Shown: positions 48,844 through 53,193 of the stretch, piece by piece
Position numbering within the stretch: the stretch's first letter is position 1
How the letters are laid out: every line of letters starts with the position of its first letter
Source: Myxococcota bacterium
GTDB lineage: Bacteria > Myxococcota_A > Polyangia > Nannocystales > Nannocystaceae
Assembly: GCA_039194325.1 (NCBI GenBank)
Contig: JBCCWC010000081.1
Coordinates: 1 to 54,766 of the forward strand
Length of the DNA: 54,766 bases
Reading direction: 5' to 3'
Position numbers and translations under genes: made by a program
Notes under the pieces: generated by a model
What the model saw: only the letters and a program-made list of their open reading frames with translations
The model's database searches: none
What the model was told of the DNA's origin: nothing

Positions 48844-49119
48844 TCAGTTGCTCTCGGGCGGATTGCTGCGCGGAGCGATTCGCTCCGGCGAGGTCGGGGG
48901 TCGATGGTCACGAACCGCAGGCGCGTTTCCGGCAATCGAGGTTGCCTGCGGAGCGGGGGGCCACTCGATCCGGTGCTTGATCATCCGCCGCTTCAGCGCG
49001 TGACGAGTGATGCCCAGCAGCTGAGCGGCCTCGACGATGCTGCCCGCGCGGTTGAGAGCCTGCTGGCACAGCAACCGCTCGGCTTTGCGGAGGTTGAGGT
49101 CTTCCAAGAGGATCGGCAT
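48844..49119 (-). CDS. Fis-family helix-turn-helix DNA-binding protein
   Basis: Start at M30 of ORF 48844..49206 (MPILLEDLNLRKAERLLCQQALNRAGSIVEAAQLLGITRHALKRRMIKHRI), the classical Fis / sigma-54-EBP C-terminal HTH_8. Divergent from the response regulator operon. Confidence 0.65.
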   Translation of the reverse strand: MPILLEDLNLRKAERLLCQQALNRAGSIVEAAQLLGITRHALKRRMIKHRIEWPPAPQATSIAGNAPAVRDHRPPTSPERIAPRSNPPESN

Positions 49120-49615
49120 GCCCACAGCATATGTGAAATCGAGCTGGTGGGAAATCCATGAGATGTAATTTTGCCTACATCTGAGGCGCGCTAACTCACT
49201 GCGCACCTGCGCAGTAATTTTTATCGAGTTGCAGATCTGCGCGCTTCACGGTTAGGAATATGATGCAGTTTCCGCGCGAATCCACAAAGTAGTTCGGGGA
49301 TAACCCGATAAAAGCGTTGGTCGCTGGCACGATTATGACCAGCAATACGGCATTGTCGGGCCGTATTGCTGAGATAGTGGATCCTCCATGAGAGCTGGTC
49401 ACCATCGACCCTAACGGGCTGTTTTGATCGGGTTCGAATGATCGGAATCGAGCAATTGGGGGTTTGGAGATCGCTTCGGGCCATGGGTGCGCTCAGGAAG
49501 GTGGAGGTAGGGTCACGACTTTCGCATCGGCGTTTTCTTCGGCCTGGGGGGCCCTTCTGAGTACCATGCGGGCCGCGCCGTGGCGGACCAGGGTCGAGCT
49601 TCTTCGCGGCATCCC

Positions 49616-51373
49616 ATGCGGGTGCTGATCGTCGATGACGAGGTCAACTTGCGCTTCGCGATCGAGCGTCGATTGCGCAAGGCAGGAATGGAGACCGGCT
49701 CGGCGAGCACGGTTCGTCATGCGATCGATCGTCTTCGCAACGAGCCGTACGACGTCGTCTTGTGTGACCTGCGCATGCCGGGAGGTAACGGTACGCAGCT
49801 GCTGCAGTGGTTGGGGAGCTACTCGCCTTCAACCAAGATCATCGTGGTCTCCGCGTTCGTCACTCCCGAGTTTCGCAAGACCTATCAGCCCACGGGTCGT
49901 CTTCGGATCCTCGAAAAGCCCGTCGACCTCGACGTGTTGGTCAAGACGCTCGAGGAGCTCGGGCCTCGCAAGGGTTATTACGGCAACGCGATCGAGGTCG
50001 AGCTGTTCGACTACGTGCAGATGATCGCGCTGTCGGGGCGCGACAAGCTGGTCGAGGTGACTACCCCTGCGGGCAAGGGTCTCATCTGGTTCGAGCACGG
50101 CGACATCGTGCACGTCGAGTACGACCAGTATCGCGGGGAGATGGCCTTCTACAACCTGCTGGGGGTCAACCGCGGCACCTTCAAGGAGGTGTTCAACCGG
50201 GAGCCGCCCATGCGGACGGTGGTTCGCTCCAGCACGCACCTGCTGATGGAGGCGGCTCGTCGGTCCGACGAGGGCACGCTGGGTCAGGAGGAAAAGCCGG
50301 CCGAGGAGGAGGAGGATGACGAGACCTCCTTTGGCGACGTGGCGGCCGAGGTGGCGGCCCAGGACACCGTCCCGCTGATCCCCGAGGACGTCTTCAGCGA
50401 GGTCAAGCCCGAGCCGGTGGCGCCCGAGCCTGCGCGTGCGCCCGCGCCGACGCCCGCGCCCACGCCGACGCCCGCGCCCATGCCGACGCCTGCGCCCACG
50501 CCGGTCCCGGAGGAGCGGCGTCGCGATCCCTTCGAGTACGCCGCGGGTCTCGAGCAGGACGAGGACGAGTACGATCCCGAGCTCGAGTTCGATCGGGCGA
50601 TGGCGATGACCGCCGATAACCAGGGTCACGAGCTCGAGCTCGAGCGGCAGCAGCAGGAGTATCAGTCGCCGGTGTCGGACGACTCGGGGCGCGAGCTGAC
50701 CTTCCACGAGGGGTCGCCCGCCGGGTTGCCGGTGGTCGACGACGACGAGCTGGTCGATCCCTTCGCCGAGCCCGAGGAGCCGTCCCGGCTCCCGCCTGCG
50801 CCGTCGGTCCCCGTGACGCGGGCGCCCCGGCCCAAGCCCAAGTCTGCGCCGGCGCCTGTCGCCGTGCTCAACGACGGCCTCATCAGCGAAGAGGAGCAGG
50901 CCGTGCTCGACGGCCTCGCGGAGGACGCTGATGAGCCGGAGGTGATCGACGAGTCGGCGGTGATCGACGAGCCGGAGGTGGTCGACGAGCCGGCCGCCGG
51001 TGGGGGCGGGGGTGGTGGCTTGCTCGGTCACGCCGCGATGTTCGAGGACCCGGACATGCGGGCGGTGATGCTCGAGCAGTTCTGGCAGTTCGACGGCATC
51101 AACGGCGTAGCGATCATCTCCAGCACCGGCAAGGTCCTCGCCGAGGACATGCGCAACAACAGCTCGTTGGTCACGTTGGCTGGCTTCTACATGCGCGGGG
51201 CGGCTCGCATCGCGCGGACGCTCGGCTACAACGTCTTCGACGGGGTCGTCGCCCGCTCTGTCGCCGGCCAGCAGATGGTCATGGTCAGCATGGGGGCCGC
51301 CTCGGCCGTGCTGTCGGTCGAGCCCGACACCGATCCCGAGATGGTCCGCGACGCAGTCATGGGGGTCGAGTGA
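49616..51373 (+). CDS. multidomain response regulator: REC + PATAN (DUF4388) + long P/A/E-rich disordered linker + Roadblock/LC7 (MglB-like)
   Basis: MRVLIVDDEVNLRFAIERRL...DVVLCDLRMPGGNG...KIIVVSAF (REC, with phospho-acceptor Asp). GNAIEVELFDYVQMIALSGRDKLVEVTTPAGKGLIWFEHGDIVHVEYDQYRGEMAFYNLLGVNRGTFK (DUF4388/PATAN). Linker with APTPAPTPTPAPMPTPAPTPVP. C-terminal GINGVAIISSTGKVLAEDMRNN...LAGFYMRGAARIARTLGY...VMVSMGAASAVLSVEPD (Roadblock/LC7). Confidence 0.75.
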   Translation: MRVLIVDDEVNLRFAIERRLRKAGMETGSASTVRHAIDRLRNEPYDVVLCDLRMPGGNGTQLLQWLGSYSPSTKIIVVSAFVTPEFRKTYQPTGRLRILEKPVDLDVLVKTLEELGPRKGYYGNAIEVELFDYVQMIALSGRDKLVEVTTPAGKGLIWFEHGDIVHVEYDQYRGEMAFYNLLGVNRGTFKEVFNREPPMRTVVRSSTHLLMEAARRSDEGTLGQEEKPAEEEEDDETSFGDVAAEVAAQDTVPLIPEDVFSEVKPEPVAPEPARAPAPTPAPTPTPAPMPTPAPTPVPEERRRDPFEYAAGLEQDEDEYDPELEFDRAMAMTADNQGHELELERQQQEYQSPVSDDSGRELTFHEGSPAGLPVVDDDELVDPFAEPEEPSRLPPAPSVPVTRAPRPKPKSAPAPVAVLNDGLISEEEQAVLDGLAEDADEPEVIDESAVIDEPEVVDEPAAGGGGGGGLLGHAAMFEDPDMRAVMLEQFWQFDGINGVAIISSTGKVLAEDMRNNSSLVTLAGFYMRGAARIARTLGYNVFDGVVARSVAGQQMVMVSMGAASAVLSVEPDTDPEMVRDAVMGVE

Positions 51374-52065: not shown

Positions 52066-52071
52066 CCGCCC

Positions 52072-53193
52072 ATGAGCGATCCAGCCGTGCGCGACGGGGA
52101 GCGGACGCTCGTCGACGCGGTGATCTCCGATCTGCCCGGCGGCGTGCTGGTCATCGACGCCGAAGGGAAGGTCGTGCACGCCAACCGCACGGCGCGGCGG
52201 ATCTTGACCGACAGCGATGAGCCCGAGCCGCCGCCGCTGGCGGGGCGGGTGCTGCAGGAGATCCGGGAGCCGCTGGGGGCGATGCGACGCTCAGCGCACA
52301 AGGCGGAGATCGTGCTGCCCTCGACGGTGCCCGGGCGTACCGCTCGGATCATCGGGTTCTCGAGCCGTCCGCTGGTGGAGGCGGGGGCGATGGTGGTGTC
52401 GTTTGCCGACATCACCGATCAGCGGGCGCGGGAGCGAGAAGACGAGCACCGGCGGCGGCTGGCCGACGTGGGCAAGGTGGTGTCGTCGGTGGCGCACGAG
52501 ATCCGCAATCCGGTGTTCGCGATCTCCTCGCTGACTCAGGTGCTGCGGGAGGAGGAGCGGATCCTCGCTGAGCCCGAGCTGCGGCGGGTGGTGGACAAGA
52601 TCCTCTTGGAGACGGGGCGGATCGCCCGACTGGTGGACGACCTGCTGGCGTTCGGGCGCGAGCGAGAGCTCAGCCCACGTCGGGTCGACGCGGTGCGGGA
52701 GATCGAAGAGGCGCTGGCCGATCTTCGCAAGGTGCTGCCGACGACCAAGGGGCTGCGGGTGCCGATGCGGCTTTATGTGGCGCCCTCGCTGCGGGCCGAG
52801 CCGCACTGGGTGGTCGACGCGGACTCGTTTCGACAGGTGGTGGTGAACCTCGTGCGCAATGCATGGCGCGCCGTGGTGCTGCGGGATGAGCTCGACCGCG
52901 ATGGACGGGTGGAGATCCGGATGTCGCACCACGGGGACGAGCACGGGGTGCCGTGGCTCGAGGTGGCCGTGCTCGACAATGGGATCGGGATCCCGGCGGA
53001 GCTTCGCAAGAAGATCTTTGAGGCGTTCTATACGCGAGATCCCAAGGGCACCGGGCTGGGGCTGGCGGTCGTGCGTCGGCTCATGAAGCAGATGGAGGGG
53101 ACGATCCGACTGCACTCGGAGGTGGGGCGAGGGACCACGTTTGTCGTGCGCGTGCCGCCGGGGGAGGTCGAGGCGGACGGCAAGGGGGGGTAA
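52072..53193 (+). CDS. PAS-domain sensor histidine kinase
   Basis: N-terminal PAS-like region (LPGGVLVIDAEGKVVHANRTARRIL), HisKA with phospho-His (VSSVAHEIRNPV), HATPase_c (VVNLVRNAWRAV..., LDNGIGIP, GTGLGLAVVRRLM..., GRGTTF). Confidence 0.85.
   Translation: MSDPAVRDGERTLVDAVISDLPGGVLVIDAEGKVVHANRTARRILTDSDEPEPPPLAGRVLQEIREPLGAMRRSAHKAEIVLPSTVPGRTARIIGFSSRPLVEAGAMVVSFADITDQRAREREDEHRRRLADVGKVVSSVAHEIRNPVFAISSLTQVLREEERILAEPELRRVVDKILLETGRIARLVDDLLAFGRERELSPRRVDAVREIEEALADLRKVLPTTKGLRVPMRLYVAPSLRAEPHWVVDADSFRQVVVNLVRNAWRAVVLRDELDRDGRVEIRMSHHGDEHGVPWLEVAVLDNGIGIPAELRKKIFEAFYTRDPKGTGLGLAVVRRLMKQMEGTIRLHSEVGRGTTFVVRVPPGEVEADGKGG

Follow-up and report, generated by a model that had tools for sequence, protein, structure and literature searches.

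We analyzed a contig of 54,766 nt (hereafter, the window; ∼68% G+C) from a Myxococcota bacterium of the family Nannocystaceae (GenBank assembly GCA_039194325.1, contig JBCCWC010000081.1) and found that a signaling module of four open reading frames (ORFs), spanning 48844–53193, has a lineage-specific gene trio at its core. The trio encodes a stand-alone helix-turn-helix (HTH) protein; a fusion of a receiver (REC), a PATAN domain, a disordered linker, and a C-terminal domain of predicted Roadblock fold; and a second Roadblock protein (Roadblock-2). The fourth ORF encodes a histidine kinase. The architecture is single-copy and common within one order, which makes it a lineage-specific family and not a one-off. 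An earlier sequence-only reading of the window had proposed these four ORFs, all of which are present at those coordinates.

The REC–PATAN–Roadblock fusion and its family

The fusion begins with the REC and PATAN domains. The phospho-acceptor pocket of the receiver is complete (D19, D20, D63, S91, and K113), the best named matches are NtrC-type receivers, and D63 is retained in 120 of 135 family members. The PATAN domain reaches 50.4 bits against a gathering score of 25 for PF14332; Pfam detects both domains expected by the sequence-only reading (Response_reg and DUF4388). PF14332 was found in every fusion homolog listed or tested; of all the fusion's domains, PATAN alone has been lost nowhere in the family, not even beside a degenerate REC. 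The linker that follows is rich in Pro (16%), Glu (14%), Ala (12%), and Asp (10%) and carries a net charge of −45. In the family it ranges from 57 to 257 aa, with a variable sequence that cannot be aligned between orthologs except for short motifs such as DDETSF. Some receivers depart from the pattern: a subclade (P0044–P0054; e.g., locus L008, which has no adjacent kinase) carries a phosphomimic-like Glu at position 63, and in a few deep branches the receiver is degenerate or missing, with no recognizable one left in P0259 and P0260.

Conservation within the fusion is highest in the last 112 aa (79% mean column identity in alignment A2). This domain had no Pfam match up to an E-value of 10 and nothing meaningful in a profile search of PDB sequences; weak Robl_LC7/LAMTOR5 sequence matches appeared in two distant family members. 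An AlphaFold model on the family alignment (predicted local distance difference test [pLDDT] 85.4, predicted template modeling score [pTM] 0.79) has the order alpha-beta-beta-alpha-beta-beta-beta(-alpha), which is that of Roadblock domains, and the best-conserved elements are alpha-2 and beta1-beta2. A Foldseek search of PDB with this model returned 54 matches at E ≤ 1e-3, and the top 50 were all of Roadblock fold (Roadblock/LC7, MglB, and LAMTOR/MP1-p14). The best had template modeling (TM) scores of 0.62–0.68, among them an Asgard archaeal Roadblock (0.68) and Myxococcus xanthus MglB (0.65). Since the fold match is confident and a sequence match is missing, it is structure prediction that identifies the domain: by the model, the Roadblock call is right, but at the level of fold only. 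The fused Roadblock domain claimed by the sequence-only reading is thus borne out by the predicted fold, with a blank from Pfam.

We then looked at how far the family extends. Homologs numbered 351 for the fusion and 262 for Roadblock-2; among those listed, the labels were Myxococcota, Nannocystaceae, Enhygromyxa, Paraliomyxa, or none. One genome for each of 185,579 species was scanned with family-specific peptide patterns, which returned 67 species-level loci. The cultured hosts are Nannocystis, Enhygromyxa, and Plesiocystis (all Nannocystaceae) and Paraliomyxa, which NCBI files under Myxococcales incertae sedis; the remainder are metagenome-assembled genomes (MAGs) with compatible labels, one of them labeled Polyangiaceae. 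A profile of the fused Roadblock domain, searched against 1.84 billion representative proteins, yielded only 28 clusters, and the match lay at the C terminus of a PATAN protein in all full-length members tested. Given so few clusters and this constant position, the fused domain appears, as far as profile searches reach, to exist only in this fusion and the family to be lineage-restricted.

ORFs were called in all loci and compared with the window proteins. The core of HTH, fusion, and Roadblock-2 genes is together in every locus not truncated there, including that of the most distant member (L071), and it is kept where the flanks are wholly different (Enhygromyxa and Plesiocystis). In 42 of 58 loci, the fusion stop and the Roadblock-2 start share 4 nt, and in nearly all others the two lie within 8 nt of each other. 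The GTGA overlap that the sequence-only reading described is found in the window at 51370–51373; the gap to the kinase, claimed as 7 nt, measures 6 nt. Among the 52 loci that extend at least 1.5 kb downstream, the kinase gene adjoins the Roadblock-2 gene in only 10, with identities to the window kinase from 82% down to 36%. Of the claim that fusion, Roadblock-2, and kinase form one operon, the tight coupling in the window therefore stands, and the kinase is not a conserved member. Three further features are syntenic upstream in many loci, again including L071: an RNase_T-type exonuclease gene (46146–47090, +), a serine acetyltransferase gene (47256–48329, −; EpsC NCBIfam model, 164.9 vs. 150 bits), and a small ORF of ∼79 aa (∼48386–48625, +; estimated start) with no family match.

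A literature search found no paper on a REC–PATAN–linker–Roadblock protein, in line with the sequence-only reading, which had not recognized the architecture as described. That reading had also held that an architecture both common and already annotated with a known function would speak against it. Common the architecture is, within one order; the public records name the fusion only "response regulator" ("MAG: response regulator [Myxococcota bacterium]" for the window protein, P0001), and a small number of JGI records append an automatic "Roadblock/LC7/MglB" label (Roadblock COG).

Partner genes, control region, and surroundings

Roadblock-2 of the window scores 20.7 bits against Robl_LC7 (PF03259), below the cut-off of 23; several orthologs pass, and the Paraliomyxa ortholog is named "roadblock/LC7 domain-containing protein." In a structure model (pLDDT 90), an MglB-like Roadblock domain occupies aa 1 to ∼122 and is followed by five helices (aa ∼129–226). 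The conserved elements again include alpha-2 and beta1-beta2, and the fold matches in a structure search include the LAMTOR and MP1-p14 complexes. The call of a second Roadblock protein thus holds, with orthologs and model supporting a sub-threshold window copy. The helical C-terminal domain carries an invariant motif, Q..EWLLCCNPSxYTxPLLxDGL (hereafter, the CC motif), and had no match in any library searched. In two loci on the deepest genome-derived branch (L065, 11249–11599; L066, 3798–4151), Roadblock-2 is seemingly only ∼117 aa long and would be without this domain. In a profile-profile comparison, the two Roadblock domains were not significantly similar apart from an in-register alpha1-beta1 stretch, and we dropped a recent tandem duplication as their origin on this ground. 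Two domains this dissimilar fit a heterodimer better than a recent duplication.

The HTH protein matches HTH_8 (PF02954) with 27.4 bits against a cut-off of 22. Ortholog alignment places its start at Met30 of a 120-aa ORF. It consists of a conserved core of ∼55 aa (MPILLEDLNL...GSIVEAAQLLGITRHALKRRMIKHRIEWP) and a variable tail, with little beyond the HTH itself; GSIVEAAxLLGITRHALKRR is near-invariant in orthologs. The divergent Fis-like gene of the sequence-only reading is thereby upheld, with a corrected start. Its PAS histidine kinase fares likewise: HisKA (53.2 bits, E = 3e-14) and HATPase_c (92.8 bits, E = 2.3e-26) are above cut-off, the H-, N-, and G-boxes are present, and the PAS-like N terminus lies just under the Pfam PAS cut-offs within an end-to-end alignment of AtoS/NtrB type (aa 11–365). 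The three plus-strand genes are coding-type in their third-position G+C content (GC3 0.87–0.88).

The fusion starts at a GTG (49580) that is in register across the aligned loci. The public annotation gives 583 aa with a later start (49616/49622 as against 49580); the downstream ATG that NCBI-type annotation favors, 36 nt 3′ of the GTG, is ATC, CAC, or CTC in many relatives. A TAnnAT box is conserved 10–14 nt upstream of the GTG (TACCAT, 12 nt upstream, in the window), and no Shine-Dalgarno sequence precedes this start. A box so close to the start codon, together with the missing Shine-Dalgarno sequence, suggests a leaderless or near-leaderless fusion mRNA.

Between the divergent genes we identified an 18-bp palindrome with the family consensus CATGGTGGATyCACCATG. 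At up to five mismatches it occurs in 49 of 63 orthologous intergenic regions, as opposed to nine of 630 control windows of equal length drawn from the same loci. At up to three mismatches it has a single match in the window (0.01 expected), and in 1.16 Mb of loci all 24 sites (24/24) fall in this cluster, at positions between the divergent genes or, for six Nannocystis-like loci, 16–71 nt 3′ of the neighboring upstream ORF, usually the small conserved one. The palindrome is a likely operator of the HTH protein, which would bind it as a dimer. A second copy was seen ∼1.5 kb upstream of the first in L054 (8465), L069 (8353), L056 (8444), L059 (8444), L068 (6088), and L050 (8376); in L054, L056, and L069, where the small conserved ORF was called, it lies 16–22 nt 3′ of that ORF, and the HTH region of Nannocystis-like loci is bracketed by two sites.

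Other signals in this region are more local. The clade-specific palindrome upstream of the HTH gene shows a two-sided change in L004 that preserves its symmetry; a scan had flagged this hairpin as terminator-like, and we rejected a terminator because relatives do not keep its T-run. Another intergenic motif (GGATCCAC/CCGATAAA), an early candidate, turned out to be clade-specific and gave way to the 18-bp palindrome. Directly beside the latter, the two arms of a perfect 12-bp inverted repeat flank an 8-nt loop (CAGCAATACGGC...GCCGTATTGCTG, 49340–49371); by eye, L006 seems to have a different hairpin at the aligned position. A sigma-70 scan gave one weak promoter-like site on the minus strand (49359..49332), no more than chance. 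Feature coordinates are collected in Table 1.

Table 1. Coordinates of the module's genes, domains, and intergenic elements in the window
Feature	Position	Strand	Evidence
HTH gene (Fis/NtrC-type, stand-alone, 91 aa)	48844..49119	−	Pfam HTH_8, ortholog alignment, divergent position
Palindrome upstream of HTH gene, ACTGCGCA-CC-TGCGCAGT, clade-specific	49198..49215	.	Kept in the window's closest relatives
18-bp palindrome GATAGTGGATCCTCCATG, candidate HTH operator	49373..49390	.	Motif counts in orthologous loci
TACCAT, −10-like hexamer	49562..49567	+	TAnnAT kept in register across aligned loci
REC–PATAN–disordered linker–Roadblock fusion, 597 aa	49580..51373	+	ORF, GC3 0.88, 351 homologs
Receiver (REC), aa 15–124	49622..49951	+	Pfam Response_reg, E = 2.6e-22
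PATAN (DUF4388/PatA_N), aa 139–231	49994..50272	+	Pfam, E = 2.7e-13
Acidic Pro/Ala-rich disordered linker, aa 246–485	50315..51034	+	Composition
Divergent C-terminal domain of predicted Roadblock/LC7 fold, aa 486–597 and stop codon	51035..51373	+	AlphaFold and Foldseek
Second Roadblock protein (Roadblock-2), 231 aa	51370..52065	+	Robl_LC7 sub-threshold, structure model
Cytoplasmic histidine kinase, 373 aa, NtrB/AtoS type	52072..53193	+	Pfam and NCBIfam

The sole Rfam element found is a tRNA-Phe(GAA) gene (53370–53447, +), with a terminator-like hairpin and T-run directly 3′ of it (gene and hairpin together, 53370–53469, +); the scan gave no terminator-like site between the kinase gene and this tRNA. 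The other genes of the window encode, by Pfam, transport, sterol, redox, and other functions. Among them, an ERG4/ERG24-family sterol reductase (E = 3.6e-77) and two cytochrome P450 genes (11734–13131, −; 17554–19011, −; 18923–20410, +) look like bacterial sterol biosynthesis, fitting an origin in Nannocystales. An 873-aa protein (27103–29724, +) has matches to the Major Vault Protein shoulder (E = 1.4e-13) and to vault repeats; such a homolog is unusual in a bacterium. An arginine deiminase gene adjoins one for a eukaryote-type arginine-tRNA-protein transferase (ATE_N/ATE_C; 15258–17660, −), and a HipA_2-like kinase gene overlaps a DUF3037 gene (14054–15230, +), which may be a toxin–antitoxin-like pair. 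A Uma2-family putative restriction endonuclease and an N6/N4 DNA methylase are encoded at 31203–31868 (+) and 36164–37510 (−). The coding status of a 489-aa ORF (20426–21895, −) is uncertain: its second-position G+C is unusually high (0.61), and the only family that it matches, weakly, is a Cys-rich conotoxin model.

Possible modes of action

Our leading reading, which we put forward tentatively, is that the module is an autoregulated, phospho-switched PATAN scaffold bearing an MglB-like platform of two Roadblock domains and acting on partners in motility or polarity whose genes lie elsewhere. A pseudo-symmetric heterodimer would form from the two unlike Roadblock domains, much as MglB forms homodimers and LAMTOR proteins heterodimers, and the conserved alpha-2 helices of both domains would make up a docking platform. 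In published MglA–MglB structures, alpha-2 is the helix by which MglB contacts MglA. Phosphorylation of D63, by the adjacent PAS kinase in the window's clade and by an unlinked kinase elsewhere, would alter what PATAN and the tethered platform bind. The most likely partners would be a GTPase of the MglA family or further Roadblock proteins of cell polarity, and/or the motor of type IV pili, with control of motility or cell polarity as the output. A dimer of the HTH protein would bind the palindrome and regulate the divergent promoters, giving autoregulation.

We rank a motility or polarity role first because of what is known of the separate parts. In Synechocystis, the only organism for which such binding is known, PilB1 and PilC are bound by PATAN as the output domain, and genes for MglA and MglB are frequent neighbors of PATAN genes (10.1101/2021.06.11.447907); PATAN>MglB>MglA and PATAN/MglA neighborhoods occur in several Deltaproteobacteria (PMC4316618 Table S2). 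RomR, which consists of a REC domain and a linker, forms complexes with the Roadblock proteins MglC and MglB (PMC10329633).

Several results weigh against this reading. Neither Roadblock domain is similar in sequence to MglB or MglC, and the fused one matches nothing outside its own family. Pfam annotation of the window gave no motility, pilus, gliding, or chemosensory genes. The kinase is missing from most loci and, together with the Glu-bearing or degenerate receivers of some lineages, this means that phosphorylation is not universally required. A GTPase is missing as well. An MglA probe used in tblastn up to an E-value of 10 found nothing in the window or within ±10 kb in the 67 loci (the genomes were not searched as wholes), and a Walker A scan (GxxxxGK[ST]) was blank in all six frames of the 54.8-kb window, both in keeping with the sequence-only reading, which had noted no GTPase gene here. 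The probe shares 97% identity with MglA proteins in the database and has a match to the Arf family. Its database matches were all at least 83% identical and nearly all unnamed, with none named from Nannocystales, a result that does not show whether Nannocystales have MglA, and a literature search on MglA in Nannocystaceae gave nothing useful. The lack of a linked GTPase across 67 genomes is the chief argument against the idea, raised by the sequence-only reading, of a regulator of a distant MglA-like GTPase; it is not decisive, because the search was limited to the loci.

The HTH gene and its palindrome equal the two Roadblock genes in strictness of conservation, whereas no GTPase ever does. 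This pattern would suit a transcriptional switch that works without a GTPase, in which the Roadblock heterodimer or the helical domain of Roadblock-2 sequesters or co-activates the HTH protein, phosphorylation of REC sets the amount of free HTH protein that reaches the palindrome, and the output is gene expression. The HTH protein itself lacks a regulatory domain, and REC, kinase, and HTH_8 are all of NtrB/NtrC type, as expected of a rebuilt NtrC-like circuit with its DNA-binding domain split off. We nevertheless regard such a switch as unlikely: all palindrome sites found (in the loci searched, not in whole genomes) lie within the cluster, which suggests autoregulation and not a regulon, and we are aware of no case in which a Roadblock domain controls a transcription factor. 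Characterized PATAN domains, moreover, act on pilus motors or division proteins (10.1101/2021.06.11.447907). PATAN could instead be the sole output, as in a PatA-like pilus regulator that binds PilB/PilC, with Roadblock domains that merely dimerize or localize the protein and a tether that sets its reach. PATAN alone suffices for output in PixE (10.1101/2021.06.11.447907), its persistence beside degenerate receivers would be expected, and M. xanthus PATAN proteins appear in proximity labeling with the pilus regulator SgmX (PMC11580455). This too seems improbable to us, given that the domain order, REC–PATAN, is the reverse of that in PatA-type proteins and that a fused Roadblock domain so well conserved (∼79% mean column identity, A2), and a Roadblock-2 with an extra invariant motif, look too constrained for a plain dimerizer.

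Bolder, and slightly more doubtful again, is a hitherto unrecognized type of two-component output in which REC, via PATAN and the acidic tether, controls an obligate, diverged Roadblock heterodimer that has no dedicated GTPase and either regulates the mini-Fis HTH protein or replaces the RomR/MglC landmark in Nannocystales; the "EWLLCCNPS" domain would then be a new effector or sensor. That the genes are adjacent through shared ancestry alone, with no functional unit, is very improbable. Part of the conservation may be plain synteny, as the RNase_T exonuclease and serine acetyltransferase genes are also syntenic in many loci; against this, the trio persists amid the wholly different flanks of Enhygromyxa and Plesiocystis, the 4-nt overlaps point to co-translation, and a dedicated palindrome lies between the divergent genes.

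Comparison with known systems

Roadblock domains, PATAN domains, and receivers with disordered linkers are building blocks of front-rear polarity and pilus control, and they have been studied almost only in Myxococcus xanthus and in cyanobacteria. The family described here joins three such blocks in one protein and supplements it with another Roadblock protein as partner and with a DNA-binding protein that has a candidate operator of its own; the family is conserved throughout an order of gliding, sterol-producing myxobacteria. None of the findings conflicts with current understanding, and the module offers specialists in bacterial polarity a clean, testable candidate. As a test system it bears on whether a Roadblock platform can work on GTPases from distant genes, or with no GTPase at all, on how phosphorylation reaches PATAN, and on the role of long acidic tethers in polarity scaffolds. 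It also indicates that a whole branch of Roadblock domains escapes sequence models.

One likeness is to the MglA/MglB/MglC/RomR polarity system of M. xanthus, in which a receiver protein with a long Pro-rich or acidic linker (RomR) is physically coupled to Roadblock proteins (PMC10329633). The module differs in holding receiver, PATAN, and Roadblock in one polypeptide, in having no adjacent mglA and Roadblock domains dissimilar in sequence to MglB and MglC, and in its helical CC-motif domain, its HTH gene, and its candidate operator. RomR-like scaffolds, compared here by description, end in an alpha-helical Glu-rich C terminus that binds MglC/RomX; the fusion ends in a predicted Roadblock domain instead. 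PATAN is genetically linked to an MglB-like Roadblock protein in PATAN>MglB>MglA neighborhoods as well (e.g., Syntrophobacter fumaroxidans Sfum_0316; Wuichet and Sogaard-Andersen 2015), but there the three are separate genes and include the GTPase, whereas here PATAN and Roadblock are fused and a GTPase is absent nearby. For MglB-type GTPase-activating proteins, an MglA-family GTPase encoded alongside, or acted on from afar, would be expected, and no gene for one was found in the window or within ±10 kb in the 67 loci.

PatA-type PATAN–REC regulators (PixG, PixE, LsiR, and PatA) likewise combine PATAN and REC in one protein, and a phospho-controlled PATAN output is plausible in both. In the fusion, however, the order is REC–PATAN, followed by a long disordered tail and a Roadblock domain. 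PatA-type regulators usually lie in Tax/Che-like clusters, whereas the module's window has no chemotaxis-like genes, and its kinase, where present, is NtrB-like and not CheA-like. Of the Streptomyces conservon (CvnA kinase, CvnB Roadblock, CvnC DUF742, and CvnD GTPase), the module has only the kinase-like and Roadblock-like members: no DUF742 (CvnC) or GTPase (CvnD) was found, and the kinase, a soluble HisKA-type enzyme, is missing from most of the family. The eukaryotic Ragulator/LAMTOR and MP1-p14 heterodimers are structural matches, and in the module, too, a platform would be expected from the pairing of two dissimilar Roadblock domains; the relation is one of fold only, and the Rag GTPases have no evident counterpart here.

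The module resembles several of these systems in its working but belongs to none of them. It is not PatA-type because its domain order is reversed, not an MglB/MglA pair because it lacks both a GTPase and sequence similarity, and not a conservon because CvnC and CvnD are missing. What is new is a lineage-specific recombination of polarity-type signaling domains, together with two unannotated elements: a branch of Roadblock domains that sequence models do not see and the helical CC-motif domain.

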